Assembly: GCA_964011795.1 (NCBI GenBank)
Contig: CAXGQC010000001.1
Span: 1-51,810, forward strand
Length of the DNA: 51,810 nucleotides
Origin: an uncultured bacterium
GTDB lineage: Bacteria > Chloroflexota > Dehalococcoidia > UBA2979
Reading direction: 5' to 3'
Part shown: positions 24,142 to 44,632 of the stretch, in pieces
Layout of the letters: every line of letters starts with the position of its first letter
Numbering within the stretch: the first letter of the stretch is position 1
Program-made: the position numbers and the translations under genes
The notes under the pieces: generated by a model
Databases searched by the model: none
What the model was told of the DNA's origin: nothing
The model's input: only the letters and a program-made list of their open reading frames with translations

Positions 24142-24534
24142 ATGCCTTCGTCCCCTGAAACAGAAGCCACCCGTGCAATAGAGGACTACATGCGAGCACT
24201 GAATAATCGAGATGATTCTCATTTACTTGATCTGCTGCACCTTCCCCACATTCGCATATCTGGAGCAGGCGTGAAAATATATACGAGTCGCAAGCAACTC
24301 GAAGAGGAGTATCTGGCAGAGTTCCATGAGCGTGCCGGGACAGAGTGGGACCACACCGATCTTGACTCGGTTGAGGTATTGCATATCTCCGAACAGAAAG
24401 TGCACCTATTTATTCAATGGACTAGACGTCGAAATGATGAGACCGCAATCACGACACAACAGGCACTATGGGTCATGACAGAAATCGACGGGATTTGGGG
24501 TGCTCAGGCCAGATCTAGCTTTGCGCCAGCATGA
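24142..24534 (+). CDS. NTF2/SnoaL-like protein
   Basis: AAGGAG SD upstream, 130 aa. Contains AIEDYMRALNNRD...IWG, an NTF2-like pattern. Confidence 0.6.
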   Translation: MPSSPETEATRAIEDYMRALNNRDDSHLLDLLHLPHIRISGAGVKIYTSRKQLEEEYLAEFHERAGTEWDHTDLDSVEVLHISEQKVHLFIQWTRRRNDETAITTQQALWVMTEIDGIWGAQARSSFAPA

Positions 24535-24613
24535 AATCGATTAAGCTCCGCTACTCATCAGAAACTAGAAAAACTTGACCATGCTCATTATCCTTCCCTG
24601 ACAGGAAGAGTTT

Positions 24614-25828
24614 ATGGAAACAGTTGGGCCATTAGCGGGACTACGTGTCCTCGAAATCGGAGACTTTATATCGGTCGGCTATGCGGGCAAGTTACTCGCT
24701 GATCTTGGTGCCGATGTTATAAAAATTGAAGACCCTATCGATGGCGATTCTGTTCGCGGTCATGGACCATTTCCAGATGATATTGTGCACCTTGAAAAAA
24801 GTGGACTACATCTTTTCCTCAATACGAATAAGAAAAGTCTGACACTTGACTATATGTCCGTCAAAGGGAGACAGATACTAGATAAGCTCATACCGCACAC
24901 AGACCTGATCATCAGCAATAATACTCATCAGGAGATACAGGATTACTCCCTCGACTATGCGTCACTGTCGCGAAACAACCCGCAACTGAGCGTCAGTTCT
25001 ATCACTGTCTTTGGATACGACACGCCCTATAGGGACTGGCTTGGCACCGCGCTGACTGCTACAGCTGCTTCGGGAGCTCCAACGAAAATAGGACATCCCG
25101 AAAAAGCTCCCTTATGGCTCCCTTACTGCGCGGCAGACTTTCATGGTGGGGTGCACGGGGCTATCGCGGCTTTATTGGCATTGAGGATGGGGAAAATATC
25201 TGGTCAGGGCCATCACGCGTGGATCTCTACTGTCGAAGTCATCGCAAGTTACTTAAATGGCTCTGGCGTGCCGCACTTCGTCTTCAATGGTGGACTGGCA
25301 TCCCGTGACGGTACGCACCGGAGTGGATTCTACCCGTGGCAGGTTGTACCGGCCGCTGACGGTTACATGGAAGTAATCACTATGGTTGATGATCAGTGGA
25401 ACCGATTTACCAAACTGATGGGAAATCCAGACTGGGCAAAAGACGAGCGTCTTCGAGACCGCTGGACATCGTTTGAATGGCATGAAGAGCTAGACGCATA
25501 TTGGCACCCTTGGCTGAAAGAAAGAACGCGTGAAGAATTATTTGAAATTTTCTCGGAGCATAGAATCCCATTCCAGCCGGTTAATCGCATCGATGAGGTA
25601 GTAGCGAGTGAGCACCTTGAAACGCGTGATTTCTGGCAGACGGTCGAGCACCCCGTGATGGGAACATACACAACACTTGGGGCGCCCTATAAATTCTCAG
25701 AAACACCATGGCACATATATCGACCAGCGCCTCTATTAGGGCAGCACAACCAAGAAATTCTTACGAATCTAGTGGGTCTATCTGAATACGAACAGGAGAG
25801 ATTAAGAGACAGTGGAGTAATCGTATGA
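24614..25828 (+). CDS. family III CoA-transferase (alpha-type of pair 1)
   Basis: Contains LRVLEIGDFISVGYAGKLLADLGADVIKIEDP and LNTNKKSLTLD. Confidence 0.9.
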   Translation: METVGPLAGLRVLEIGDFISVGYAGKLLADLGADVIKIEDPIDGDSVRGHGPFPDDIVHLEKSGLHLFLNTNKKSLTLDYMSVKGRQILDKLIPHTDLIISNNTHQEIQDYSLDYASLSRNNPQLSVSSITVFGYDTPYRDWLGTALTATAASGAPTKIGHPEKAPLWLPYCAADFHGGVHGAIAALLALRMGKISGQGHHAWISTVEVIASYLNGSGVPHFVFNGGLASRDGTHRSGFYPWQVVPAADGYMEVITMVDDQWNRFTKLMGNPDWAKDERLRDRWTSFEWHEELDAYWHPWLKERTREELFEIFSEHRIPFQPVNRIDEVVASEHLETRDFWQTVEHPVMGTYTTLGAPYKFSETPWHIYRPAPLLGQHNQEILTNLVGLSEYEQERLRDSGVIV

Positions 25829-27072
25829 GCATGGAAACGCTGGGGCCTCTTTCGGGGATTCGAGTGCTCGATCATGGGCACGTGTGGGCCGGGCCTTTAC
25901 TAGGGATGAGTTTTAAAGATATGGGAGCTGAGGTAATAAAAATTCAGTCGCCAAGCGGGAATTCTGGAGTCTCCATGGGCGGACGTGGAATGCCGGGAAC
26001 CACTGCCGGTGGTGACGTCGAAGAACTCGATCCTATGGGATTCCATGCTTTCGACCGGGGCAAGAAAAGTCTGACGCTTAATCTCCAGTCTCCAGAGGGT
26101 GTCGAAATTTACAAGCGGCTGGTCGCAAAAACAGATGTAATTGTTGAAAACTTCTCCGCTCGAGTCATGCCCGCGTTAGGTCTGGCATACGAGGTCTTAT
26201 CCGAAATCAATCCACGAATAATTCTTGCGTCGTTATCTGCTTCAGGTGCCACGGAAGGTCCATGGAGAGACCTTGTCACCTACGGGCCATCACTCGCAGC
26301 GTTATACGGAATAAAAAGTGTGCTCGGATACCACGACTCGGAACATCCTCAGGAAGACCAAGCTGATCTCGATCCTACGGCCGCAGGCCACGCATTTTTT
26401 GCGACTCTCGCGGCTCTCGAAGCTCGAGACAGAACGGGTAAAGGTCAGCATCTAGATATCGCACAAGGAGAGGCATCTATCCAAAGAATAGGTGAGCCCA
26501 TTATGGACTATCTCCTTACAGGGCGAATCGCCGGTCCTCAGGGAAATCGTTATCCAGGGATGGCTCCGCACGGCTTTTATCGCTGTAGTGGAGATGACAG
26601 TTGGATATCAATTTCTATCCGTGATGAAGATGAATGGACTCGATTAATTGAGTTTTGCGGAGAAATGGTACCGGCAATAAGAGACGAACGATTTTCCGCC
26701 CTGAGTGACCGCCTTACCTTTCAGGACGAGTTGGATTCCATACTTGAGCGTTGGACACTCAATTATGAATCATGGGATCTCACACGACAACTGCAAAAAA
26801 TCAGAATTCCTGCTTATCCAGTGATGGGGGCCATTGAACTAGCAGCAGACGAAAACTTTAACGCGCTCAATCAATCGAATCTTGTGATGCGCAATACGAC
26901 ATACTCAAAAGACGCTATCTATCGCGGGGTGGTCTGGAAACTCGATGACGGCTGGGGTGAAATATCGGGCTCACTCCCAAAAGCCGGGGCCGACAACAAT
27001 GACATCTTGATTGACCTGCTAGGGTATGACGGAAATACTGTTAAGGACTTCGAGATGCGTGGTGTTATCTGA
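25825..27072 (+). CDS. family III CoA-transferase (beta-type of pair 1)
   Basis: Contains IRVLDHGHVWAGPLLGMSFKDMGAEVIKIQ. ATGA overlap with the upstream paralogue. Confidence 0.9.
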   Translation: MSMETLGPLSGIRVLDHGHVWAGPLLGMSFKDMGAEVIKIQSPSGNSGVSMGGRGMPGTTAGGDVEELDPMGFHAFDRGKKSLTLNLQSPEGVEIYKRLVAKTDVIVENFSARVMPALGLAYEVLSEINPRIILASLSASGATEGPWRDLVTYGPSLAALYGIKSVLGYHDSEHPQEDQADLDPTAAGHAFFATLAALEARDRTGKGQHLDIAQGEASIQRIGEPIMDYLLTGRIAGPQGNRYPGMAPHGFYRCSGDDSWISISIRDEDEWTRLIEFCGEMVPAIRDERFSALSDRLTFQDELDSILERWTLNYESWDLTRQLQKIRIPAYPVMGAIELAADENFNALNQSNLVMRNTTYSKDAIYRGVVWKLDDGWGEISGSLPKAGADNNDILIDLLGYDGNTVKDFEMRGVI

Positions 27073-27119
27073 TCCGCTCGAATGCGCTAAGCTATTCGGG
27101 CGTGAGTACGGGGGTATGA

Positions 27120-27926
27120 ATGTCAATCAATACGAATGGACTGTTGGAGGGTAAGGTAGCTGTAATCACAGGTGCCTCCCGTGGCATTGGTGAAGCCATT
27201 GCAATCCGCTACGCGATGGAAGGGGCGAAAGTCGTTGTATCAGCAAGAACAGTAGACGATGGTGACCATATCCTTCCGGGAAGCATGAATTCCGTTGTCC
27301 AACGGATCAATGACGCGGGCGGTGAAGCAGCAGCGATCAGATGTGACATGGCTTTAGCGGAAGATCGAATTGCCTTGATTGCAGAGACGGAAAAACTGTT
27401 TGGCGGAGTGGACATTCTGGTTAACAATGCCGCCGTAACTTATTTCATACCAATCGCAGATTTCCCCGACAAAAGGGAAAAACTCATGTTCGAGGTCCAG
27501 GTACATGGGCCAGTGCATCTCGCGCAACTAGCAATGGAAAACATGAGACAGAAAAAGAATGGTTGGATTCTTAACATATCATCGCACGCTGCGCTGCATC
27601 CTGAGGTAGACGCAGCTGGGTCCGGGGGCACCGTGTATGGGATGTGCAAGGCCGCACTAGAGCGCTTCTCCACGGGACTGGCCTCGGAGGTCAACGATCA
27701 CAACATTCGTGTGAACGCGATTTCACCTGGATTGGTTGCGACGCCTGGGGTCGTTCATCATGGACTAGTAAATGACACCAATAAAGATCGTGTTGTTCCA
27801 GTGGAGAATATGGCGGAGGCGTGTCTCAGACTCGTGCACGATCATGGAGGCCCACTTTCAGGACGTATTACTTACGCGGACGTCATGCTGGAAGAATTCT
27901 CTTTAGCGCCCGCAGATTTGATTTAA
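27120..27926 (+). CDS. short-chain dehydrogenase/reductase (SDR)
   Basis: Contains TGASRGIGEAIA, NNAA and the Y-x3-K motif (YGMCKAAL). Confidence 0.9.
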   Translation: MSINTNGLLEGKVAVITGASRGIGEAIAIRYAMEGAKVVVSARTVDDGDHILPGSMNSVVQRINDAGGEAAAIRCDMALAEDRIALIAETEKLFGGVDILVNNAAVTYFIPIADFPDKREKLMFEVQVHGPVHLAQLAMENMRQKKNGWILNISSHAALHPEVDAAGSGGTVYGMCKAALERFSTGLASEVNDHNIRVNAISPGLVATPGVVHHGLVNDTNKDRVVPVENMAEACLRLVHDHGGPLSGRITYADVMLEEFSLAPADLI

Positions 27927-27989
27927 ATTATCGGGCTCAGCTGAGCTCGTAGATTATTATGAGGAAGTCTTAAATTAAGGAGACAAAAA

Positions 27990-29108
27990 ATGGAAGGCAA
28001 TCCACTACACACACGGCTTTGCGAAGAATACGGTTGTGAAATACCGGTAGTCGCATTTGCTCATACAAAAGATGTTATTGCGGCAGTTTCGAATGCTGGT
28101 GGTATAGGTATCCTCGGGGCGACCGGCCTAAAACCAGAGGAACTCCGATCAGATATTGCATGGATTAGGGACAAGATTGGTGACAAGCCGTTCGGCGTCG
28201 ATCTTCTTGTGCCAGCTTCATTTGTTGAAGGTAATCGCGAAGATTTAGACGAAATGATCCCCGACGAGCATCGGGAATTTGTAACACACATTAAGTCGGT
28301 TTCAGGTGCTCCTGATTCGCCACCACCGAGCGATATTGACCCGACTTACTCGGGTTATGAAAACCTGCTCGAGCGATCTAGGCAACAGTTAGATGTCTTA
28401 TTTGAGGAAAAAGTACCCATATTTGCCTCAGGTCTAGGAAGCCCCGCTTTCATCATTGAACGGGCTCATCAAGAGGGTATGAAAGTCTGGGGACTCGTTG
28501 GACTTCCTCGACAGGCCCGCAGACAGATTGAAGCAGGCGTGGATGTTGTAGTCGCCCAAGGTTATGACTCGGGCGGGCACAGTGGAACCGTGGGCACCTT
28601 CACCCTGGTACCGGAAGTCGTAAAAATGGCGGAAGGCACAGACACGTTAGTGCTGACAGCGGGTGGAGTATCTAGCGGTAAACATCTTGCAGCTTCCATT
28701 GCTATGGGTTCAGCCGGAGTCTGGACAGGCACTATCTGGCTAGCTACGCATGAATCAGAGACTGCCATGTTCCTAAAACAACGAATAATTGATTCAAAAG
28801 TAGAGGATGCAGTCCAGTCCAGGGCTATGTCTGGCAAACCAATCCGACAACTCAGATCACGATGGTCAGATATCTGGAAAGAGGACGGAGCTCCTGATAC
28901 GCTCCCCATGCCGCTTCAGGGTATGCTCGTGAATGATGTGCTCAGGGATATTAAGGAAGCCAATCTCGAAGATTGGATGACTACACCAGCTGGTCAAGCA
29001 ATCGTTGGTATTGACGCGATTAAACCGGCCGCTGAGGTAGTGTATGACATGGCTGATGAGGCACTCGAACTCTTTGAGCGTGCTACTGAAACGTCAGCCA
29101 CCGCTTAA
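27990..29108 (+). CDS. nitronate monooxygenase / NPD-like FMN-dependent oxidoreductase
   Basis: Contains AGGIGILG and QGYDSGGHSG. 372 aa. AAGGAG SD upstream. Confidence 0.85.
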   Translation: MEGNPLHTRLCEEYGCEIPVVAFAHTKDVIAAVSNAGGIGILGATGLKPEELRSDIAWIRDKIGDKPFGVDLLVPASFVEGNREDLDEMIPDEHREFVTHIKSVSGAPDSPPPSDIDPTYSGYENLLERSRQQLDVLFEEKVPIFASGLGSPAFIIERAHQEGMKVWGLVGLPRQARRQIEAGVDVVVAQGYDSGGHSGTVGTFTLVPEVVKMAEGTDTLVLTAGGVSSGKHLAASIAMGSAGVWTGTIWLATHESETAMFLKQRIIDSKVEDAVQSRAMSGKPIRQLRSRWSDIWKEDGAPDTLPMPLQGMLVNDVLRDIKEANLEDWMTTPAGQAIVGIDAIKPAAEVVYDMADEALELFERATETSATA

Positions 29109-29128
29109 TCCCACGTCAGGTATTTCCC

Positions 29129-29410
29129 ATGACTGAAAAAACGGAGCAGGGACAACCAAGAGATTCGATGCAGATCACGCTTGATTCTGAACTTGTGGGC
29201 AGGCGGGCAGAGGCGGACGGTGGAACTCAAGTGGGTAACACTAATTTCGCGTCACGCGCAGCCTTTGAGGGTGTCCTAACCGGACGGAAAATAGTCCAGG
29301 GAGATCCCCCCTGGTACTGGTTAGAAATTGGTCAATTATCGGTCAAACCAGACGATTTCGAGGACGAGTTCGTCTGGTGTGAGGAATCCTACGTTTATTT
29401 CATCGACTGA
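29129..29410 (+). CDS. 93-aa acidic protein, unknown function
   Basis: The ORF fills the NMO-etfB gap exactly on the same strand. No clear SD and no recognisable motif. Confidence 0.4.
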   Translation: MTEKTEQGQPRDSMQITLDSELVGRRAEADGGTQVGNTNFASRAAFEGVLTGRKIVQGDPPWYWLEIGQLSVKPDDFEDEFVWCEESYVYFID

Positions 29411-29422
29411 GTCTTTGGAGAT

Positions 29423-30250
29423 ATGAGGCACGCTATGCATATTCTTGTCGCTGCAAAGCAAGTATTGGATCCTGATGGGATTAACAGTTACGCACTTTGG
29501 GGCCGTCTAGAAGTCAGTGAGGACGGACGAGGATTCAATACCGGTGAGACAGTTCCTCGTATTATCAATGCCTATGACGAACAAGCGATGGAAGCCGCCC
29601 TGCAAATCGCCGAGACACGAGAGGATGTCCGAATCACGGCGGTCACTGTCGGCTCAGATACAGCCCCTGATGTACTGAAACGATGCTATGCAATGGGTGC
29701 TGAAAATACCATCCATGTGCACGACGAAGAAAGCCGACCAGGTGATCCGTTCCGAGTTTCCCAGATACTTGCAAGTGTGGCGGAGAACCTCGGAGATGTT
29801 GACTTAATTTTATGCGGTCGGCAGGGGTCTGATTATGACCAAGGAGCTGTTCCTGCCATACTGTCCGAGGATCTCGGACTGCCTTTCATTACCATGGCGG
29901 CTAAAGTGAAGTTAGATGAAGCAACAGGTTCACTGCATGTCGAGGTTGTGACTCCAGACGGACCGGAAACATTAGAATGCGATTTGCCGGCAGTGGTTGC
30001 CGTCAGTAATGAAATTGGTCAGCCACGCTATCCGAGTAGCCGGCGAATGATTCAGGCCCGCCGCAACCCTCCTACTGTGTTTCAGGCGAGCGAATTATTA
30101 CAGGAGCCAACGACAGGAAAGATGAGTATCAAACTCCTTACAGTCCCATTAGTGCAAGGCAACTGCGAGATAATTGAAGGCGGTGACCCGAAAGAGAAGG
30201 CATCACAGCTACTCCAGATCCTTCGCGAGCGAGGTGCTATAAATGGCTGA
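29423..30250 (+). CDS. etfB: electron transfer flavoprotein beta subunit
   Basis: Contains ILVAAKQVLDP...NAYDEQAMEAAL...ILCGRQGSDYDQG. Confidence 0.9.
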   Translation: MRHAMHILVAAKQVLDPDGINSYALWGRLEVSEDGRGFNTGETVPRIINAYDEQAMEAALQIAETREDVRITAVTVGSDTAPDVLKRCYAMGAENTIHVHDEESRPGDPFRVSQILASVAENLGDVDLILCGRQGSDYDQGAVPAILSEDLGLPFITMAAKVKLDEATGSLHVEVVTPDGPETLECDLPAVVAVSNEIGQPRYPSSRRMIQARRNPPTVFQASELLQEPTTGKMSIKLLTVPLVQGNCEIIEGGDPKEKASQLLQILRERGAING

Positions 30251-31214
30251 TCCTATTCTTGTGCTGGCACATATTGACGAGACTTTGGAAATTGATATCG
30301 GCACCAAAGAAGCTCTCGGTTTTGCGCTCAATGTATCCAAACAAACGGGTAGCACTGTGGAATGCGGACTCATTGGTACGGATAACGCATCGGCTGTTGA
30401 TGCCGTTACAGGACTCGGCGCTACTAAGGTCTATACGGTCGAAGATTCTTCGCTCGCTCGTTTTTCTGGTGACAATGTAGTCTCAGCCGCATCCCGCATA
30501 GTTTCCAGCTCAGGAGCAGGCCTCGTGCTACTTGGAAGACATCCATCGACACTCGAATTCGTACCTCGATTGTCAAAACGCGTCGGGGGCAGCTGTGTCA
30601 TGAACGTGACAGGAATTGCAGCCATAGATGCTCAATATACAGAAGTTGAGGCCGCTGTTTACGGTGGGGCAGCTAGAGCACTGTATCAGGTTGATTCTGG
30701 TCTACCGGCGGTTCTTGGCCTGAGACCTGCTGCTGCCGAAGCCCCAGAGCCTCTATCGGACAGTTCTTCTGACGTGGTACCACTCAGTCTTGAACCTACA
30801 ACTGAGCGAGTGCGGGTTATCACGGCGGCAACCGCTGATAGAGGACCACGTTTGGAAGATGCAGAGATAGTCGTGTCAGGCGGTCGAGGCTTACAAAATG
30901 CTGAGAATTTTGGTCTGGTGCGGGAGTTGGCGAGTCTTCTTAACGGCCTGCCTGGGGCTTCTCGTGCAATTGTTGATGAATACTGGGCCCCACCCACTGA
31001 GCAAATTGGACTAACAGGTACCACCGTTGCTCCCGCGTTGTATTTAGCAGCTGGTATTTCAGGAGCAAGTCAGCACATGGCGGGATGTTCTAATGCCCGT
31101 TTGATAGTAGCAATTAATTCCGACCCCGAAGCTCCGATCTTCAAATATGCTGACGTAGGCATCGTGGATGATTGCCTAGCTGTTCTACCTGAACTCATTC
31201 AGCTTCTGCGCTAG
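30243..31214 (+). CDS. etfA: electron transfer flavoprotein alpha subunit
   Basis: Contains VVSGGRGL...GASRA.VD...QIGLTG..V.P.LYLAAGISGASQHMAG. 8-nt overlap with etfB. Confidence 0.9.
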   Translation: MADPILVLAHIDETLEIDIGTKEALGFALNVSKQTGSTVECGLIGTDNASAVDAVTGLGATKVYTVEDSSLARFSGDNVVSAASRIVSSSGAGLVLLGRHPSTLEFVPRLSKRVGGSCVMNVTGIAAIDAQYTEVEAAVYGGAARALYQVDSGLPAVLGLRPAAAEAPEPLSDSSSDVVPLSLEPTTERVRVITAATADRGPRLEDAEIVVSGGRGLQNAENFGLVRELASLLNGLPGASRAIVDEYWAPPTEQIGLTGTTVAPALYLAAGISGASQHMAGCSNARLIVAINSDPEAPIFKYADVGIVDDCLAVLPELIQLLR

Positions 31215-31260
31215 AATTCAGTGATCCATAAACAGTAAACCTAAAAGGCGCTAATTTTCC

Positions 31261-31920
31261 GTGAGCTCTGATATCCAACTGGAATCCCCGAGACAATACC
31301 GGCCAGATGGTGGTTCTGTTATCGAGATGCATGCCCATAGCTCAGATAAATCACTCGATAGTGGGGTGAGTGTGGAGAAACTCGTAGAACAAGCAGCTGC
31401 CAGAGGACTAGATGGCATCTGCCTAACTGAGCACAACGCACTATGGCCTGAGGAAGATACTCGGCGACTTAGCGAAATCTTCGAGATTAACGTGCTTCCT
31501 GCAATCGAGTTAGGTACGAATTTTGGTCATATTCTCGCGTATGGTTTCTCACGATATCGACCTCAACTACTCATGATGGATCACCTAATTAAGAGTGCCG
31601 AGGAAGAGGGTGTTGCACTAATCGTGGCACATCCGATGCGGTCAACGGGCACCGCACGCAGGCCGTCTAGCGAGGAAATACAACGCTGGTTCACTGGCAT
31701 TGAAGCAGTCAATGGTGATCATTCAGACAGTGATGACGGCTACTACGTGAGACTGGCACAAGAACTAGGTGTCGTCGCGATTGGCGGTTCCGACGCGCAT
31801 TCGGTTCAAGCGGTTGGACGGGCAGCCACCATATTCCCAACGGAAATCAAAACAATAAGCGATCTTGTTTTTGCACTGCAGCAAAGAAATGCATCGCCCT
31901 TAGATCTGAGGATCAGCTGA
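31261..31920 (+). CDS. PHP-domain metal-dependent phosphoesterase
   Basis: Contains EMHAHSSDKSLDS...GLDGICLTEHN...AHP...GGSDAHS. The GTG start is uncertain. Confidence 0.75.
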   Translation: MSSDIQLESPRQYRPDGGSVIEMHAHSSDKSLDSGVSVEKLVEQAAARGLDGICLTEHNALWPEEDTRRLSEIFEINVLPAIELGTNFGHILAYGFSRYRPQLLMMDHLIKSAEEEGVALIVAHPMRSTGTARRPSSEEIQRWFTGIEAVNGDHSDSDDGYYVRLAQELGVVAIGGSDAHSVQAVGRAATIFPTEIKTISDLVFALQQRNASPLDLRIS

Positions 31921-35458: not shown

Positions 35459-36319
35459 ATGACTAACACTATCGACAGTATTCAGGATATTTCGAACGGA
35501 GATGTAATCGCCGAGTTAGACGATGAAGGTGTGCTCCTCACCACGTTCAATCGGCCTGAACAGATGAATGCTCTAAATCAAACACTTGGACTTGGACTTG
35601 GAGCTGCACTCAAGTTTGCTTCAGAAGAGGACTCAGTAAGAGCCATGGTGATCACGGGAAGTGGCCGAGCATTTTGTGCTGGCGCAGAAATTAGTGGAGA
35701 CAGAACTCCAGCCGAATCAGGTGAAGCACCAAGTGATGCGGCACCAACCGTTAGTCGCCATGAAAGACTTGTTCATCACAACCGTTCTGTACAGACAGCA
35801 CTAGGATTTATAAAGTCTGACGTCCCGATAATAGGCGCAATTAATGGCGCGACTGCTGGAGCAGGCTTTGGTATGGCAATGGCCTGCGATGTTCGCATTG
35901 CAGGAAAGTCGGCTCGTATGGGACCCATTTTTTTCAAACGCGGGATAGTGTCTGACTATGGAGTCCTTTGGTTTCTACCCAGAGTCGTCGGGAGTGCCAA
36001 GGCGTTCGAGGTGATGTATCACAGTGACGTCATGCCTTCAGAAAAGCTCTTAGAAATGGGACTAGTGAACCGTGTCGTCGAAGATGATGACCTCCTTACT
36101 GAGGCCTTAGCATATGCCAGAAAGGTAGCAGCAGGACCTCCATTAGCTGCATCAGAAATAAGGAGACTCCTGCATTCTTCACTAGATGCCACCGGGTCAG
36201 CCGAGCAATGGCTAATCCAAGAATGGAACGCTCAGGCAAGCCTACTAAAAACAACTGATGCCAAAGAAGGATTTCGCTCATTTGTAGAGAGGCGAGACCC
36301 TGACTTTAGGGGTTACTAG
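35459..36319 (+). CDS. enoyl-CoA hydratase/isomerase family protein
   Basis: Contains VITGSGRAFCAGAEI, GAINGATAGAGFGMAMACD and a C-terminal FVERRDPDF. Confidence 0.9.
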   Translation: MTNTIDSIQDISNGDVIAELDDEGVLLTTFNRPEQMNALNQTLGLGLGAALKFASEEDSVRAMVITGSGRAFCAGAEISGDRTPAESGEAPSDAAPTVSRHERLVHHNRSVQTALGFIKSDVPIIGAINGATAGAGFGMAMACDVRIAGKSARMGPIFFKRGIVSDYGVLWFLPRVVGSAKAFEVMYHSDVMPSEKLLEMGLVNRVVEDDDLLTEALAYARKVAAGPPLAASEIRRLLHSSLDATGSAEQWLIQEWNAQASLLKTTDAKEGFRSFVERRDPDFRGY

Positions 36320-36359
36320 GGACAAGTAAGTACGTGGTCCCTTACAGACGGTTTTAAAT

Positions 36360-37568
36360 ATGAGCAGACAACTATTCGAAGGTATCAAAGTCTTAGAACT
36401 GGGGACCATGGTTGGAGTTCCCTATTCTGGCAAACTCTTTGCAGACTACGGGGCAGAAGTGGTTAAGATAGAGCCACCAGAGGGCGATCCCTCCCGCTTA
36501 GAAGGGCCATTTCTCAACGACATCCCAGATAAAGAAGCCTCAGCTCTTTTTCTGCATCTGAATACGAGCAAAAGGTCCATAACATGCGATCTCTTTTCAT
36601 CAGCTGGGCGAGACATAGTCCGCACCTTAATTGAGCAACATGACATAGTGATTGAAAATTTTCCGCCGGGAACTCTCGATTCTTTAGGTTTGGGTTTCCA
36701 AGCGTTCGCGAAGGAAAAGCCTGACCTTGTATTAGGATCATTGACACCCTTCGGACAAACCGGTCCATGGAAGGATTTCAAGGGTTCAGAACTCGTCCTA
36801 CAAGCTATGGCCGGACCAATGCATATAAACGGGCACAGTTCACGTGAACCAATAAAACTCGGTGGGAATCTAGCTCACTATCACGCTGGATTAGCTTTGA
36901 CATATGCTTGCGCCCTGGCTCGACTAAGGGTCGAACGAGGAGGCTCGGGTGAGCATATAGACCAATCAGTATATGAAGCACAAGCCGGCTTCCGTGACAG
37001 AAGAACTCCGGGTCTCACGGCAGCATCTTACAGCGGCAAAAGTAGTAAAAGAGGAGGTCTTTCATCGCGGGTTGCCTCAGGACCACGACCGGCAAGTGAT
37101 GGGTATGCGAATATTTTCGCTGGGGCGAGTAAACACGTTCCTGAATTCTTAAGACTCATTGGCCGACCTGATCTGGCTGAACAACCAGATGCAGAAAAAC
37201 CATTTACTCAAATGGGAGAACAGTTCATAGAGGAACTTGAAGGTGCCTATGGAATTTGGCTCATTGAACGGACAAAGCGCGAGGCCGTTGCAGCGACCCA
37301 AGCAATCGGAATCCTGGGTGGAGCTGTTTTAACTATTGAGGATCTTCTCGATGATCCGCATTACCAAGAGCGTGACGTATGGGAAACCGTTGACCATCCT
37401 GTTACGGGTTCTATGCGTTATCCAGGAAGACATTTCGTGACGTCAGGCGCCACCAGACAACAAATGAACCGCGCACCACTACTCGGTGAACACACTGTGG
37501 AAATTCTCTCAAATATCGGATATTCGAATTCAGACTTAGTTCAGCTACGTCGGGCGAAGGTGATTTAG
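36360..37568 (+). CDS. family III CoA-transferase (alpha-type of pair 2)
   Basis: Contains IKVLELGTMVGVPYSGKLFADYGAEVVKIEPPEGDP and LNTSKRSI. Closely resembles the N-domain of the 799-aa fusion. Confidence 0.9.
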   Translation: MSRQLFEGIKVLELGTMVGVPYSGKLFADYGAEVVKIEPPEGDPSRLEGPFLNDIPDKEASALFLHLNTSKRSITCDLFSSAGRDIVRTLIEQHDIVIENFPPGTLDSLGLGFQAFAKEKPDLVLGSLTPFGQTGPWKDFKGSELVLQAMAGPMHINGHSSREPIKLGGNLAHYHAGLALTYACALARLRVERGGSGEHIDQSVYEAQAGFRDRRTPGLTAASYSGKSSKRGGLSSRVASGPRPASDGYANIFAGASKHVPEFLRLIGRPDLAEQPDAEKPFTQMGEQFIEELEGAYGIWLIERTKREAVAATQAIGILGGAVLTIEDLLDDPHYQERDVWETVDHPVTGSMRYPGRHFVTSGATRQQMNRAPLLGEHTVEILSNIGYSNSDLVQLRRAKVI

Positions 37569-37569
37569 T

Positions 37570-38922
37570 ATGAGCGACTCACAAAGCTCCCGAATGCTTC
37601 CTCTTGACGGCGTAAAAGTTGCTGCAGTGACAGTTGTATGGGCGGGACCACACTGCACTCAGGTCTTGGCTGAGTGGGGGGCCGAGGTCATTAGAGTAGA
37701 GCCAATTGACGCTATCCAGCCCTACTCGAGAGGGGCCGAGCGGATTGCGACGAAGGAGCAGGTAATCGAGAGCGTAAAGAATGGACTAACTCTGTTCGCT
37801 TATCCCGACTATGACCCTGGTCAAGAACCATGGAACAGGAATCCTGGTTTCAACTCTCATAGCCGTAATAAAAAGTCTATGGCCTGCAACATCATGACCC
37901 CCGAAGGGAAAATAGCTTTCTTGAAATTAATCAAAGAAGTCGACGTGTTAGTCGAAAACAATGTCCCTACAACTATTGAAAAGGCTGGGATCACCTACGA
38001 AACTCTCAAGGAAATAAATCCTCGTTTGATCATGCTTCGCATGCCCGCTTACGGGCTTTCAGGTCCGTACAAAGGGTACAGAGCATTCGGCACGCATGTA
38101 GAGGCAATGATTGGTCACCACTACATTCGTGGCTACCCCGACGGAACCCCTGATGAAACGGGCGAGGCTTTCACCGCCGATGCCTTCGCTGGACTTCTGG
38201 GAGCTACAGCGATCACTGCTGCTCTGCGCTATCGAGATACCACAGGTGAAGGTCAGCAAATTGAGATGCCACTTGCAGAAGGATTTCTACCAAATCTTGG
38301 GGAATTCATACTTGACTTTGAAATGAATGGTCGAGTCGCAGGACCTCAAGGAAATACACATCACTCGCACGCGCCTCACGGAGTCTTCCCAACATCAGGG
38401 GATGATCAATGGATAGCAATTGACGTATCAGAAGATGAAGAATGGTTTTCGCTTTGCGAGGTATTAGGTGCCGATACTCTCGCTAATGATGCTCGATTCC
38501 ACACCCAGTTATCAAGATTTCAAAATCGCGCGGTCTTGCATGATGAGCTGAACAAATACACAATCAAGCACCAAAAGTTCGACCTTTTTATAGAACTGCA
38601 GCGGTCTGGAGTATGTGCAGGGCCGGTCACAGATGATATGGAACTCCTCGAATCTCCCCAGTTGATCGATCGTGGTTTCTTTGAGGAACTCGAATCACCA
38701 GTCATCGGTAAACACAGATATCCGGGGATCATGACCAAGTGGGTTGGCACACCAAACTCAATCCGCACTCCTCCACCAAGACTGGGGGAGCACACCGAGG
38801 AAATATATAAACAGTTACTGGGCTACAGTGATGAGGAATATAACAAGCTACTCGAGGAGGGTCAGGTCGGTGACAGGTATCCAGACCATCTCCTACCGGA
38901 CTTCCTCAAAACGTCAAAATAA
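37570..38922 (+). CDS. family III CoA-transferase (beta-type of pair 2)
   Basis: Contains VTVVWAGPHCTQVLAEWGAEVIRVEP and PWNRNPGFNSHSRNKKSM. Resembles the C-domain of the fusion. Starts 1 nt after the upstream stop. Confidence 0.9.
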   Translation: MSDSQSSRMLPLDGVKVAAVTVVWAGPHCTQVLAEWGAEVIRVEPIDAIQPYSRGAERIATKEQVIESVKNGLTLFAYPDYDPGQEPWNRNPGFNSHSRNKKSMACNIMTPEGKIAFLKLIKEVDVLVENNVPTTIEKAGITYETLKEINPRLIMLRMPAYGLSGPYKGYRAFGTHVEAMIGHHYIRGYPDGTPDETGEAFTADAFAGLLGATAITAALRYRDTTGEGQQIEMPLAEGFLPNLGEFILDFEMNGRVAGPQGNTHHSHAPHGVFPTSGDDQWIAIDVSEDEEWFSLCEVLGADTLANDARFHTQLSRFQNRAVLHDELNKYTIKHQKFDLFIELQRSGVCAGPVTDDMELLESPQLIDRGFFEELESPVIGKHRYPGIMTKWVGTPNSIRTPPPRLGEHTEEIYKQLLGYSDEEYNKLLEEGQVGDRYPDHLLPDFLKTSK

Positions 38923-38937
38923 TCAGAAACTAGTAAT

Positions 38938-39759
38938 TTGCTGACGGAAATAATTGAACCCTTGCTTCTCATTTTCATTGGTGCAGCCATCGGTACATAT
39001 GCTGGTGCGATCGGGGCAGGGGGCGGGTTCCTGATCGCACCTTTTCTACTGTTCCGATATCCTACTGCGACTGCAGCGGAGATAACTGCCGCCTCGCTCT
39101 TATATGTAGTTGTCAATTCCGCTCTTCAGGTTTTAGTCGCATTCAAGGAAAATCGAATTGATGGCCGTCTGGTAGTGCTGCTTGCTGCGATAGGGGTACC
39201 AGCTGCGGTTGTGGGAGGAGCTACAACAGGATTAGTTCCCCGAGACTACTTCGCAGTTGGATTTGGCGTCTTCTTGGTACTAATCGGCATATACGTAATT
39301 GTCCGACCAACGGCAGTCCCGGAACCCACAACTGGCGACGGATGGCAAAGGAATATCAAAGACAGAAATGGGACTATCTTTCGGTTTAGGATTCCTCTAA
39401 TTCGTTCGGCATTAGCTCAGGCAGCTACCGCATTTTTCTCAGCCCTTGCGGGTATCGGCGGCGGGCCAATAGGAATGCCTGTAATGACTCGCGTGCAGAA
39501 AGTGCCTCATGAAATCGCGGTCCCAAGCATGCATCTACTAATATTTATCCAATCAATCTCTGTCACAGGCCTGCATATAGTGAATGGGGTAAACGGATCT
39601 CCTCTTGGTGATCTCCCATGGTTAGCAGCAGGCGTAATAATATCGGCTCCTCTAGCGGCCAAATTCCGTCGGATCAGTGGCGAGGGGAAATTAATGAGAG
39701 CTCTTGCGATTGGACTTATTGCCATCGGTGCAAGTGCGGTCTTCGATATTTTCAGATAA
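38938..39759 (+). CDS. TauE/SafE (TSUP, DUF81) family anion exporter
   Basis: Multi-TM protein with two GAIGAGGG / LAGIGGGP repeats typical of TSUP. TTG start, no nearby ATG. Confidence 0.75.
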   Translation: MLTEIIEPLLLIFIGAAIGTYAGAIGAGGGFLIAPFLLFRYPTATAAEITAASLLYVVVNSALQVLVAFKENRIDGRLVVLLAAIGVPAAVVGGATTGLVPRDYFAVGFGVFLVLIGIYVIVRPTAVPEPTTGDGWQRNIKDRNGTIFRFRIPLIRSALAQAATAFFSALAGIGGGPIGMPVMTRVQKVPHEIAVPSMHLLIFIQSISVTGLHIVNGVNGSPLGDLPWLAAGVIISAPLAAKFRRISGEGKLMRALAIGLIAIGASAVFDIFR

Positions 39760-39770
39760 TATTCATCTTT

Positions 39771-41084
39771 ATGAGTCCCGATAATCTAATTTCTAAAGAA
39801 GAGTTCCTGAAACGGCGCGAACGTTTTATGAGAAAAATAGGGGATGGAAATGTTGCAGTCGTCGTATCTGGTGAGGAAATCATAAGAAATGGAGACGTAC
39901 ATTATCCATTTAGACAGAATTCGTCCTTCCACTACCTGACAGGATTTCCAGAACCGAGCTCAGTTGCGGTGTTTGCCCCGGGTACTGAGAAACCATACAG
40001 CCTATTTGTCCGGCCGCATGATCCTGTGATGGAAACGTGGGTTGGTCCCCGGATAGGTCTTCGCAAAACTATAAGCCGATTCGGTGCCGACCGTTCATTC
40101 GATATCGCGGACATTCTTGAGGAACTCCCGAAACTTTTGAACCAAGCTGACACCATTTGGTACAGCATCGGTAGCAACGCAAAAATCGATCAAATCGTTG
40201 GCAACCAAATTTCTGAACGAAGAGACGGACTACAACGGGGTGGTGCTGCCTTGGAAGCCGTCCGAGACCCACAAGAATTAATTGACGAACTAAGGTTAAT
40301 TAAATCGCGAAGTGAGATAAGCGCGTTACAGAGAGCCATAGACATCACTGCTGCTGGACTCGCCCATATCAGAGACTATGTCGAGCCCGGAAAAACAGAA
40401 TACGAGGTCCAAGGAACTTTGGAGTCTGAATATCGAAAGCTAGGATCACCTCGGGATGGTTTCCCTTCGATAGTCGCAGCAGGACATAATTCCTGTACGC
40501 TTCATTATATCGACAATCGTGATCTCATTAAAAACGGAGATTTGCTCCTACTCGATACAGGCGCTGAATGGGATTTTTATTCTGCCGATGTCAGTCGTAC
40601 CTACCCGGCAAACGGTAAATTCACCTCCGTTCAGAAAGACGTCTACGATATTGTCTGGTCGGCACAGCAAACAGCGATCGAAGCAGTACGGCCAGGGGCT
40701 AGTTTCTATGACCCACACGATGCGGCTGTCCGGGTCTTGATAGAAGGGCTGAAAGATCTGAAAGTGCTCAAGGGTAATAGGAAGTCGATCGAATCGTCAT
40801 TCGGCTATAGACCATACTACATGCATGGCACCAGTCATTGGCTTGGTCTGGATGTTCATGACGCTGGAAAATATCGAAACGCTGATCAAACACCAGTAGC
40901 TCTAAAACCAGGAATGGTACTCACGGTTGAACCTGGTCTCTACTTCCCTAGATCGATCGACGGCATTCCAGCTGAGCTGCGTGGAATCGGAATTAGAATC
41001 GAAGACGACATTCTTGTTACCCGAACAAAATACCGAAATCTCTCAGCGGCAATACCATCTAAATCAGACGAAGTGTCAGATTAA
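39771..41084 (+). CDS. pepP: Xaa-Pro aminopeptidase (M24B)
   Basis: Contains [42 protein letters not shown] and IRIEDD. The start at 39771 is chosen because the longer track ORF overlaps the TauE gene. Confidence 0.9.
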
Positions 41085-44000
41085 CTACAACCTGTCGTTT
41101 CCCCACATATCACGCATTTTAGACAAGTTCCGGATCGCACCATCTTGAATTCACCACACATAGGACAGGCATCGCCCTCAAAACCATATCTCTTCGCCTC
41201 GATCTGCTGAGCCATAAGGGTTGGTTCACCAGTCTCTGAAATCAAATTACTGGCAGCCGTGGGCACTGGGATTTCTGATTTTGGTTCATCAATAACAGGT
41301 AACGCCGCAGGAAATTCCAATACGGATATATTGTCTGGTGCTTCACTCTGCTCGCTTGAATATACCTCTGTATTTGTTTCATCTATCTCAGCCTCAATAG
41401 CTGGTACATGAGCAAGATTATCCATACCGAGATATGTGACACCAAGATCTCTGAATATATAGTCGATAATCGATCGTGCATTCTTAATTCGGTCATGTCC
41501 TTGTACGATACCGGCTGGCTCAAAAGCCCTGAAGGTAAACTTATCAACGAATGTTTCCAACGGGACGCCATGCTGCAGACCCACTGACACCGCTGTCGCA
41601 AAACAGTTCATCAGACTTCTAAAGGCTGCACCATCCTTCGCGGTGTCAATAAATATCTCACCAAGCCGGGGTCTGCCGTCACGCCCTACCTCTGGATAGT
41701 CTCCAGTCCTGAGATAAATTGTGTGGCCACCGACTGTCGCCTTTTGGGTATAGCCGCCCGGCCGTCTAGCCGGAAGCTCTTCCCGCTGACCTCGTCCGAG
41801 ACCAACCAATCTTTCGGCGGACTCCACAATGGCCTGGGTGAATTCCTCTGTATCCTCAAACTCATCCGCTCCGAAAAGTAAGGCGCTCTTGTCGGAAGAA
41901 AGTGGTTGTGAAAGTTTCGAACCATCTCGATATAGTGCCAATGCCTTGACCCCAAGAGATGCCGCCTCATCATAGACCTCTGTGACTTCCGTGACGGTAG
42001 CCTCAGCGGGCATATTGATTGTCTTCGATATGGCTCCTGACAGGAATGGTTGTGCAGCTGCCAACATCCGAACATGCGCCATAGGATCAATGTACCGCGT
42101 GCCGTAATCACCACACTTATTTGCGCAATCAAATACTGCGAGATGTCCGTCTTCTAGATATGGTGCACCTTCAACTGTCATTCGACCATTCACATAGTCG
42201 TTGGCCTCAGTGATTTGTTCAAGAGAATAGCCAACTGCACTCAACAGATCGAACCCAAACACAGACGAGTCATCCTCGCTGAGACCAATCTTAGATATAA
42301 AGCCCTCCCTGGCAACCAAAGTGTTGAAAGCGACAGAAATATGAGGGGCCCATACCAAAGCATCTTCGACCGCCCGAATGTCGTCACTTTCAAATCCAAT
42401 AGTCGTCAGTGATCCTATATTGATACCCGGAGCACCTTCTAGCGTATGAGCTCCAATAGTGTATTGAGTGATCTCCTGGATTTGCTCCTCTGAATAACCA
42501 AGCTCCTTTAACGCTAATGGCACCGACTCGTTAATTATTCGGAAGAAACCGCCACCAGCTAGCTTTTTGAACTTGACTAGCGCGAAATCTGGCTCCACGC
42601 CAGTAGTATCACAATCCATTAGCAGACCGATAGTGCCGGTTGGTGCGATTAGTGTGGTCTGAGCATTTCTAAACCCGTGGGCTTCGCCCAATTCTACAGC
42701 TATATCCCACCATTTCCTCGCCGAAGACAGAAGTTTTTCATCAGCATCGATCTCATTGATCGGCATCGGGAGAACACTAAGTTGTTCATAATCATCCGGT
42801 GGCGATGCAATGGCCGCTCTTCTATGATTCCGCATAACGCGCATCATATTTTCTGCGTTTTCTTCGTATCGTGGGAATGGTCCTATTTCAGATGCCATTT
42901 CCGCCGACGTAGCATAAGAACATCCTGTCATGATCGCAGTTAATGTCCCAGACATTGCCAACGCCTCAGGTGAATCGTAAGGCACACCCTTCTGCATGAG
43001 CAGTGCACCTAAATTGGCATAACCCAAACCAAGGGTTCTATAGTCATACGACCGTCGAGCAATAGCTTCCGAAGGAAACTGAGCCATGAGGACGGAAATC
43101 TCTAGCACGATAGTCCACAGTCTTATTCCATGCTCATAGCCCTCAATATCGAACTCTTTGGTCGTGGTGTCATAAAATGACGCAAGATTCAATGAAGCCA
43201 AGTTACACGCAGTATCATCCAAGAACATGTATTCAGAACAGGGATTCGAGCCATTAATCCGCCCACCAGCTGGGCTAGTATGCCACTCATTTATCGTGGA
43301 ATCATACTGAACACCAGGATCAGCACTTTGCCAAGCTGCTAGAGCCACTTTCGACCATAAGTCTTTTGCTCGAATAGTCCTCGAAACGTTTCCGTCAGTA
43401 CGGCGCGTTAGGTCCCACGAGTCATCTCGGCGGACAGCATCAAGAAATTCAGCGGTAACCCGAATGGAATTATTTGAGTTTTGCCCAGATACACTCTGAT
43501 AAGCTTCACCCTGCCAATCCAAATCAAACTCCGCAAAATCAAGCTGACCAAGACCTTGCTCAACCAAGTCCAACACGCGAACAATCACAGCTTCAACTAC
43601 GTTATCAGCACGTGCAAGGCGGATGGCCTTACGCAGTGATTTATTTTTTTCTACATCAGTCCCACCGATTGATTGATCAGATGCTAGATCGAAAATACTA
43701 GTCAAATGGCGTCTAGTTATTTTCGCTCCCGTTACAAGGGCAGCTACTTTCTGCTCTTCATTGACCTTCCAGTCCACGAATTCCTCAATATCGGGATGAT
43801 CAGCATCAAGTATCACCATCTTTGCTGCTCGTCTTGTAGTTCCACCGGATTTGATAGCACCAGCTGCCCGGTCACCGATTTTCAAAAAAGACATTAGACC
43901 GGAGGATTGGCCGCCACCCGATAATTCCTCACTGTCACCTCTTATAGAGGAGAAATTCGACCCGGTACCCGACCCATATTTGAACACTCGTGCCTCACGA

Positions 44001-44632
44001 GTCCAAAGATCCATTATCCCGCCTTGATTAACCAAATCATCAGCCACAGATTGGATAAAACAGGCGTGAGGTTGAGGTCGCTCATACGCCGACGTTGACG
44101 GTTTCATTTCTGCTGATTCAGGATCTACAAACCAGTGACCTTGAGGTGGACCTTGTATTCCGTAGGCCCAATTGAGTCCTGTGTTAAACCACTGCGGGGA
44201 ATTAGGAGCGACCATCTGCCGTGCCATCATATGCCTTACTTCATCAGCGAAAGCTAAAGCATTTTCCTCATCATCAAAATAACCATTTTTCAATCCCCAG
44301 TAAGCCCATGTCAGCCCCAGGCGATCGAAAGCTTCACGAGCATCGACTTCTCCTCTGAAGTTGGTTCCCTCTGCAGGCACCCTCCTCTGAGCCCACTCTG
44401 GTACTCCTTCCTCAGGAACTGGAACGGACTCTTCGGGTACGCCGGCTCTGCGAAAATACTTTTGAGCCATCACATCAGTCGCCACCTGTGAAAATGATTC
44501 CGGGATCAGAATGTCGTTAGCCTCAAATACGACAGTCCCATCAAATTCAGTTATCCTTGAATCTTTTTTTACAAAATTAACGCCCTGATATGGACTCTGA
44601 CCTGCCTTAGTGAAACGACGTTCGATATGCAT
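41081..44632 (-). CDS. nrdJ: class II (adenosylcobalamin-dependent) ribonucleotide reductase, long form
   Basis: Contains [21 protein letters not shown] and [36 protein letters not shown], with a C-terminal Cys4 finger CPMCGEF...[15 protein letters not shown] upstream. Confidence 0.95.

Follow-up and report, generated by a model that had tools for sequence, protein, structure and literature searches.

A predicted acyl-CoA-oxidizing flavoenzyme of the FabK/NMO fold and its putative dedicated electron transfer flavoprotein in a SAR202-type Dehalococcoidia bacterium

Electron transfer flavoproteins (ETFs) are conventionally tied to acyl-CoA dehydrogenases (ACADs) and a few other flavoenzymes. 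A 51.8-kb stretch of DNA from a Dehalococcoidia metagenome-assembled genome (MAG), the whole of contig C1 and referred to here as the window, carries a cluster of nine genes in which an ETF is encoded beside an FMN enzyme of the nitronate monooxygenase (NMO)/FabK family, a pair of family-III CoA-transferases, a 93-aa protein that belongs to no family (the orphan), and a PHP-family hydrolase (Table 1). In the trimethylamine dehydrogenase–ETF couple of methylotrophs, a TIM-barrel FMN enzyme is the dedicated donor of a specialized ETF; PDB entry 1O94, which we take to be linked to this couple, is among the structure matches of the window EtfB. Trimethylamine dehydrogenase differs from the window enzyme in belonging to the old-yellow-enzyme group, in carrying a 4Fe-4S cluster, and in oxidizing an amine rather than a CoA thioester.

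Closer in overall design is the Bbs system (BbsEF, BbsG, BbsH, BbsCD, and BbsAB, with the Geobacter ETF 5OW0). Like the cassette, it activates its acid with a two-gene family-III CoA-transferase, and it then uses a dehydrogenase with a dedicated non-bifurcating ETF, followed by a crotonase and a short-chain dehydrogenase/reductase (SDR), the same series of steps that we propose below; its thiolase has a DUF35/ChsH2-type partner, as at three cassette loci in other genomes (L093, L120, and L121). The differences are that BbsG is an ACAD, replaced in the cassette by a FabK/NMO-fold FMN enzyme; that the cassette adds the 93-aa protein and the PHP hydrolase and has no thiolase in the window; and that the cassette carriers are aerobic marine and soil lineages. 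By this analogy the cassette would work like Bbs without being a member of it, the NMO-like enzyme taking the place of the ACAD.

Relatives of the FMN enzyme act on thioesters in both directions: FabK reduces enoyl-ACP, and another PF03060 protein, ArkA, probably reduces acrylyl-CoA in acrylate resistance, with predicted use of NAD (PMC4029986). IpdC is a PF03060 flavoenzyme that shares about 30% identity with FabK; in actinobacterial catabolism of steroid rings C and D (HIP catabolism) it acts together with the SDR IpdF, desaturating an alicyclic CoA thioester ahead of the crotonase EchA20; it was assayed with NAD+ and FMN, not with ETF (PMC5380842). The window likewise has SDR and NMO genes side by side with crotonases nearby, IpdC being compared here by its published description only. 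Unlike the cassette, however, IpdC is mentioned in that paper (PMC5380842) with neither an ETF nor an orphan-like protein; IpdAB is a class I-like transferase/hydrolase, and the window has no ACADs and no class-I transferase pair, unlike the KstR2-type context (ipdAB, fadE30-33, and echA20). FabX of Helicobacter pylori is an NMO/FabK-family FMN enzyme that runs the FabK reaction in reverse, dehydrogenating acyl-ACP with a physiological electron acceptor that is an open question there (PMC8626469); it differs from the window enzyme in acting on an acyl-ACP, in also isomerizing its product, and in having a [4Fe-4S] cluster, and the window enzyme sits among CoA-transferases rather than fatty-acid synthesis genes.

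Our analysis favors, with a probability of roughly 0.6, the reading that the NMO-like enzyme is an acyl-CoA α,β-dehydrogenase that reduces a dedicated, non-bifurcating ETF, with the orphan as an adaptor or subunit. The region would then be a single operon of a SAR202-type Dehalococcoidia bacterium, serving a catabolic route that depends on CoA. The CoA-transferase pair would activate a carboxylic acid as its CoA thioester, with succinyl-CoA or a product of the pathway as the probable CoA donor, and the NMO-like enzyme would oxidize the acyl-CoA to a 2-enoyl-CoA, the FabK reaction reversed as in IpdC and FabX. The 93-aa beta-protein would serve as a small subunit or docking adaptor; the dedicated EtfBA would accept two electrons, one at a time, and hand them to the membrane quinone pool via an EtfD-type oxidoreductase encoded elsewhere in the genome. 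Nearby crotonases and the SDR would hydrate and oxidize the product in a Bbs-like beta-oxidation. The acid in question would be one that ordinary ACADs do not accept, and the one dedicated ETF would probably serve several NMO-like paralogues, as a housekeeping ETF does for many ACADs. The sequence-only reading of this DNA had already suggested the NMO-like protein as the ETF-coupled oxidoreductase acting on a CoA thioester made by the transferase pair; gene order and the absence of ACADs agree with that suggestion, and what we infer from the comparisons that follow is the electron transfer itself, that it runs oxidatively, that the orphan is an adaptor, and what kind of substrate is involved.

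The absence of ACADs holds for the contig but not for the organism. A tblastn search with the genome's own 16 ACADs found nothing in the window at E ≤ 1e-3, and none of the genome's matches to PF00441, PF00108, or PF02737 falls on contig C1, which upholds the earlier observation that the 51.8 kb carry no ACAD, thiolase, or classical 3-hydroxyacyl-CoA dehydrogenase. The MAG (1.68 Mb, 77% complete) nevertheless has at least 16 ACAD loci, all on other contigs, plus a housekeeping ETF, and an organism without ACADs was therefore rejected. An ACAD gene just beyond the window, which would have undercut the proposal, is not found in relatives with longer contigs: in two congeners, the cluster is on contigs of 83.9 kb and 49 kb, to which none of those genomes' 16–17 ACAD hits maps. 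The closest relatives of the window are marine and sponge Dehalococcoidia MAGs, and the SAR202-type assignment made from sequence alone was thus right.

Two ETF_alpha loci were identified in the host genome, one in the window and one on contig C56. The latter (C56:116-5929) encodes an acyl-CoA synthetase, then a 743-aa membrane Fe-S protein with a NarI-like domain, two 4Fe-4S domains, and two CCG domains, and then EtfB and EtfA; the same domain architecture is that of mycobacterial EtfD, an ETF:menaquinone oxidoreductase (PMC13083937). On this basis, C56 encodes the housekeeping ACAD–ETF–quinone branch, and the window ETF is an additional one. The mycobacterial EtfBA–EtfD system shares the two-subunit ETF fold with the cassette, and in the host the EtfD-architecture protein, encoded beside the other etfBA, is the likely outlet for electrons from the cassette ETF. 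The cassette ETF differs from the housekeeping one in being a separate paralogue (EtfB about 36–38% identical), in its altered recognition loop, and in having an NMO-like enzyme rather than ACADs as its neighbor.

The alternative that survives best, although we consider it unlikely, is that the pathway is the same but has no direct couple: the ETF would serve ACADs encoded elsewhere or upstream, the NMO-like enzyme would be NAD(P)H- or O2-linked, and the adjacency would reflect co-regulation. The number of ACADs in the genome speaks for it, and the existence of the EtfD–EtfBA locus, whose counterpart is the sole ETF in relatives lacking the cassette, speaks against it. At least two ETFs are present in five of five orphan-bearing genomes, and exactly one in five of five well-assembled genomes of the same family without the orphan. 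In a phyletic sample of 301 genomes spread evenly across the class, the orphan occurs in nine, and a module-type EtfB (at least 211 bits and at least 43% identity) occurs in exactly those nine, each adjoining the orphan; the remaining EtfB matches score about 160 bits and are of the housekeeping type, barring a few intermediates.

The surface with which an ETF meets ACADs also differs. In human ETF-beta, a recognition loop (Pro189-Met198, P-R-Y-x-x-L-P-x-I-M) docks on ACADs (PMC4148887). The housekeeping EtfB on C56 has PRYPKLPQIM at this position, and the housekeeping EtfBs of the host and ten relatives conform to PRY[PS][KQ]Lx[QE]IM; the window EtfB has PRYPSSRRMI, without the Leu-Pro-x-Ile-Met of a canonical ACAD-serving ETF. 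Thirteen Dehalococcoidia module EtfBs carry PRYPSSR[RG]M or near variants, and 35 further module EtfBs, mostly from other phyla, carry PRYP[ST]xxxx; all of them are without the Leu-Pro-x-Ile-Met, and the docking surface is altered throughout the module EtfB clade. Of 74 module ETF loci, only 10 have an ACAD-like gene within 6 kb, and in none does such a gene adjoin the ETF. Taken together, the separate housekeeping locus, the co-occurrence with the orphan, and the lost ACAD-docking loop are evidence, at the level of sequence, for an ETF dedicated to the conserved core of the cassette.

The core was delimited by comparing the flanks of NMO orthologues and module EtfBs by tblastn; an EtfB-alignment bait, run against one genome per species, recovered 80 loci, 69 of them with enough upstream DNA. 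The nine genes of the sequence-only reading are not conserved as one unit. Within the genus, all nine genes, the carboxylase, and the crotonase/transferase operon are syntenic (L062, L063, and L067-L073); beyond it, the NTF2-like gene, the SDR, the carboxylase, and the hydratase/transferase operon drop out. What is conserved is the CoA-transferase pair, the NMO-like enzyme, the orphan, EtfB, and EtfA, plus PHP in Chloroflexota. Between genera, NMO-orphan-EtfB-EtfA-PHP is kept at L048, L050, L051, L052, L054, L061, and L096-L098, often including a transferase pair orthologous to that of the window, and orthologues of this pair (35–60% identity) flank the cassette in many lineages and phyla. Gene order is thus conserved, as expected, for NMO-(orphan)-EtfB-EtfA in different genera and phyla, and the same CoA-transferase pair frequently accompanies it.

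Among the 69 loci, the orphan lies directly upstream of EtfB in 61, and an NMO gene stands co-directionally just before the orphan or EtfB in 43; PHP is present in 37, family-III CoA-transferases in 27, crotonases in 24, and SDRs in 14, the SDR adjoining the NMO gene within the genus only. Orphan and PHP are therefore linked to the ETF more tightly than the SDR is, and the notion that these two are passengers was not borne out. The arrangement CoAT< CoAT< NMO> orphan> EtfB> EtfA> (CoAT, CoA-transferase), always without PHP, recurs in Binatia, Myxococcales/Polyangiaceae, 'Deltaproteobacteria', Gammaproteobacteria/Pseudomonadales, and one Spirochaetales MAG. That NMO–EtfB adjacency holds across phyla while all other neighbors change speaks against co-regulation as the only link between them.

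Partial cassettes are informative. In the genus g4 and at loci L072 and L091, PHP follows NMO-orphan with no intervening ETF; at L090 and L093 just the NMO-orphan pair is present; L093 and L121 have near-identical neighborhoods without and with etfBA after the orphan, respectively; and in genome G120 the NMO gene abuts EtfB, followed by EtfA, with no orphan between. In genus g6, orphan-EtfB-EtfA-PHP is found next to unrelated genes (an ion channel and a molybdoenzyme), and a 73–74% identical NMO orthologue is encoded elsewhere. The four families are thus joined pairwise in different lineages, as would be expected of functionally interacting parts rather than of a frozen accident, and the recurrence of the core in dozens of independent loci means that the arrangement is not due to chance.

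Several of these loci have features of their own. Genome G032 has two cassette copies (L052 and L054) plus tandem NMO paralogues; in each copy, the two ETF genes run divergently from PHP-NMO instead of in the same direction. A complete bacterial-type CoAT-CoAT-NMO-orphan-EtfBA set is found in a MAG labeled Nitrosopumilus sp. (L173); its NMO is sister to a Myxococcales sequence (support 100/95), and the contig is probably mis-binned rather than an archaeal gene set. At L119 (6403-7004), the NMO gene is in 141-aa and 59-aa pieces upstream of an intact orphan-EtfBA-PHP, representing either a decaying gene or a long-read frameshift error. On a JGI metagenome contig (L091:6297-8948), a PF01613 flavin reductase lies directly upstream of NMO-orphan-PHP and is a possible alternative redox partner. 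Loci L093, L120, and L121 are flanked by SCP-x-type thiolases, DUF35/ChsH2-type OB-fold partners, and luciferase-like monooxygenases, flanks that resemble steroid side-chain or Bbs-type thiolysis.

The NMO-like enzyme belongs to the NMO/FabK superfamily (PF03060 cut-off, 28 bits; Table 1). It falls below the FabK equivalog TIGR03151 (162.1 bits against a cut-off of 453, in two matching stretches) and, compared with FabK structures, contains about 58 extra residues (77-134) that separate the two stretches; its match to these structures (149 bits) is closer than that to true nitronate monooxygenases (69 bits). The catalytic GGH histidine is kept, DSGGHSG aligning with ESGGHIG of Thermotoga FabK 5GVJ. 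The translation contains only two cysteines (C11 and C16), so a FabX-type [4Fe-4S] cluster is absent. Between congeners it is the most constrained protein of the operon, with 97–98% amino-acid and 82% nucleotide identity; recent recombination was rejected as the source of the 97% protein identity because nucleotide identity is just 82%, a combination that points to very strong purifying selection. The CoA-transferase pair is 66–67% identical between congeners at the amino-acid level (versus L062/L067), which suggests that the redox core is fixed and that the enzymes loading the substrate evolve fast.

A maximum-likelihood tree of 68 NMO homologues placed all ETF- and orphan-linked sequences in one clade (55 rows, support 93/82); outgroup paralogues of about 40% identity, including the type of the host's own copy on contig C109, are never linked. 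Unlinked copies nested in the Dehalococcoidia part of the clade look like duplicates and could be using the same ETF in trans.

The orphan is a real conserved gene, the representative of a small all-beta family without a Pfam entry. It is conserved from Dehalococcoidia to Pseudomonadales and comprises 136 clusters at 90% identity (in a set of 5.8 billion proteins) and 56 clusters at 50% identity (in 1.84 billion proteins); no Pfam family matches any of 30 members. Residues G24, G31, G32, R43, G48, G52, G58, and W83 are invariant across phyla, and the protein carries a G-D-P-P-W motif and an acidic C-terminus. The AlphaFold2 model (pLDDT 78) is all-beta with six strands, and the predicted fold has no PDB match at E<0.1; longer proteins with the orphan domain gave no informative fusion with either NMO or ETF. 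Judging by where it lies and by its acidic C-terminus, the orphan could plausibly be an adaptor or small subunit linking the NMO-like enzyme to the ETF.

The PHP gene is the Chloroflexota-specific last gene of the cassette, following EtfA or, where the ETF is absent, the orphan directly. Its product has the PHP-family fold and the HxH...E...H...H...DxH ligands (H24, H26, H58, E83, H90, H124, D178, and H180), which are invariant in 18 orthologues. The AlphaFold2 model (pLDDT 92) has TM0559, PsfC, and RNase AM as its top fold matches (Foldseek against TM0559: TM 0.72, E 4e-11), placing it nearest to uncharacterized or generic PHP phosphoesterases. Roles in FAD/FMN handling or on the 3'-phospho-ADP moiety of CoA were considered and dropped.

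The type of ETF bears on the direction of the reaction. The top solved relative of the window EtfB is 5OW0_B, from the ETF of Geobacter metallireducens, which we take to be the non-bifurcating ETF of toluene catabolism. The window motif CGRQGSDYDQGAVP aligns with AGRQSSDMDRGVVP of this protein, and the two share GRQxSDxDxGxVP. The window EtfB lacks GRQAIDGDTAQVG, which is present in the CarD (6FAH) and 4KPU chains and presumably surrounds the second, bifurcating FAD; a bifurcating ETF was rejected for this reason, and the window ETF is probably a one-FAD, non-bifurcating protein.

That assignment is relevant to a second alternative, a reductive couple in which the NMO-like enzyme is an enoyl-CoA reductase fed by the ETF, as CaiA is by FixAB in carnitine metabolism, or as in clostridial acryloyl-CoA reductase with its ETF. 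In the Cai system, too, a crotonase and an ETF occur together with a family-III CoA-transferase; FabK and ArkA run reductively; and for both ETF subunits the top NCBIfam matches, none of them near its cut-off, include FixA/FixB and the ETF subunits of clostridial acryloyl-CoA reductase. We nevertheless regard this alternative as improbable: besides the lack in EtfB of the motif of bifurcating-type PDB chains, no FixCX-type or ferredoxin/NADH-input partner is present among the identified neighbors of the cassette, most carriers belong to aerobic heterotroph lineages, and the crotonase, SDR, and thiolase genes on the flanks are consistent with an oxidative route. At three non-Chloroflexota loci, moreover, a gene of EtfD architecture lies about 1.8 kb from the NMO gene and divergent from it, a family that passes ETF electrons to menaquinone (PMC13083937). 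The EtfB motif and these EtfD-like genes together argue for the oxidative direction.

A number of observations weigh against the favored reading of a direct, oxidative NMO–ETF couple. FabK uses NADH, and NAD(P)H is the usual cofactor of its family, which leaves room for an NMO-like enzyme that needs no ETF; the predicted NAD use of ArkA and the cofactors of the IpdC assay would fit an NAD(P)H-linked enzyme whose neighboring ETF serves ACADs. The main counter-example is locus L120, where two ACADs stand upstream in the same gene run and one of them may be the partner of the ETF. The g4 genomes with NMO-orphan-PHP carry the housekeeping ETF only, L091 has its flavin reductase upstream instead of an ETF, and several close NMO paralogues have no ETF nearby; in g6, conversely, orphan-EtfB-EtfA-PHP stands alone, with the NMO gene elsewhere in the genome. 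The non-bifurcating assignment stands on a single EtfB motif. Finally, module-ETF loci were gathered with an EtfB bait and unlinked NMOs with an NMO bait, so the proportions of linked and unlinked loci are biased and should be read as patterns, not frequencies. A last alternative, that orphan-EtfBA-PHP is an independent module for another donor or for ETF maturation or regulation, with NMO proximity a historical accident, draws on the isolated four genes of g6 and on the unexplained role of PHP and is very improbable, given that g6 genomes keep an NMO orthologue, that NMO-orphan-EtfBA stays together outside Chloroflexota where PHP is missing, and that the NMO subfamily, the orphan, and the module ETF co-occur phyletically.

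Table 1. Genes of the cluster and the carboxylase gene that converges on it (positions in the window)
Feature	Position	Strand	Basis or remark
Weakly NTF2-like 130-aa protein	24142..24534	+	First operon gene, genus-specific
Family-III CoA-transferase, first of pair	24614..25828	+	PF02515 (CoA_transf_3), 285.8 bits
Family-III CoA-transferase, second of pair	25825..27072	+	PF02515, 261.7 bits
SDR	27120..27926	+	PF00106, 148.8 bits
NMO/FabK-family FMN enzyme, 372 aa	27990..29108	+	PF03060, 153.1 bits
93-aa orphan	29129..29410	+	No family
EtfB	29423..30250	+	PF01012, 96 bits
EtfA (FAD-binding subunit)	30243..31214	+	PF00766 (ETF_alpha), 108.8 bits; PF01012, 63.6 bits
PHP-family metal-dependent hydrolase	31261..31920	+	PF02811 and PF13263 (PHP, PHP_C)
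Single-chain BC-BCCP-CT (biotin carboxylase, biotin carboxyl carrier protein, carboxyltransferase) acyl-CoA carboxylase, 1130 aa	31930..35322	-	Domain matches

The nine open reading frames (ORFs) are all on the plus strand as first described, and Pfam and NCBIfam back seven of the nine earlier gene labels. Both reported overlaps are present in the sequence: an ATGA joins the two CoA-transferase genes, so that the second is translationally coupled to the first, and etfB and etfA overlap by 8 nt; the remaining intergenic gaps are 12–79 nt. A scan found no plus-strand terminator-like site within the cluster, although promoter and terminator scans gave fewer hits than in shuffled sequence and are hence little informative. 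By their domains, with all scores above cut-offs and the genes side by side, EtfB and EtfA form an ETF heterodimer. The CoA-transferase pair is probably a heteromer with a BbsE/F-like layout; the top NCBIfam match of the first member is succinate-glutarate CoA-transferase (207 bits, far under the cut-off of 750). The SDR is probably the hydroxyacyl-CoA or ring-alcohol dehydrogenase of the route, in a role like that of IpdF or BbsCD. The product of the first gene has only sub-threshold Pfam matches, to DUF4440/DUF6841 (NTF2-like, E about 0.006); homologues 60–62% identical occur in genomes of the same genus, and none was found beside the cassette elsewhere.

Downstream, the carboxylase gene converges on the cluster 9 nt past the PHP stop codon and is 83–85% identical, in the same position, in same-genus loci only. 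Divergent from it (35459-38922, plus strand) are a crotonase and a second family-III CoA-transferase pair, and the arrangement of carboxylase, crotonase, and second pair is found, 79–85% identical, in congeners only. Farther along, a TauE-family ORF (38938-39759) and an M24 aminopeptidase ORF (39618-41084) overlap by about 140 nt as listed, the start of the peptidase probably lying downstream of the first ATG. At 41081-44632 (minus strand) lies the gene for a class II ribonucleotide reductase of 1183 aa whose C-terminus carries a TSCPD domain; its barrel domain matches in two stretches and may contain an insertion.

In the full-text literature searched, which leaves most subscription journals outside, we found no description of an NMO, nitropropane dioxygenase, or FabK coupled with an ETF, and the SAR202 genome paper treats the expansion of CoA-transferases and SDRs without touching on ETF or NMO. 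The present work adds the cross-phylum distribution of the cassette, the co-occurrence of the orphan and the module ETF, the EtfD–ETF locus, the loop change, and the NMO clade. A broader interpretation, which we offer tentatively and rate as somewhat less probable than not, is that these genes represent a multi-phylum, hitherto undescribed class of FMN-dependent acyl-CoA dehydrogenases of the FabK/NMO fold with their own ETF paralogue and a docking beta-protein of about 90 aa. They would give beta-oxidation a second entry for electrons, running in parallel with ACAD/ETF and handling substituted or alicyclic carboxyl-CoAs beyond the reach of ACADs.

A donor of the FabK/NMO fold that has its own ETF and a new adaptor would add a class of ETF partner and, if the reading is true, would make ETF a candidate physiological acceptor for IpdC- and FabX-type enzymes. 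Myxococcota and Pseudomonadales are also among the carriers of the cassette, and cultivable ones may exist there, so the hypothesis could be tested without culturing SAR202. Landry et al. 2017 (PMC5395668) proposed that SAR202 channels unusual carboxylic acids through CoA-transferases into oxidation; for SAR202 and similar lineages, the cassette would give this proposal a concrete, testable enzyme system.

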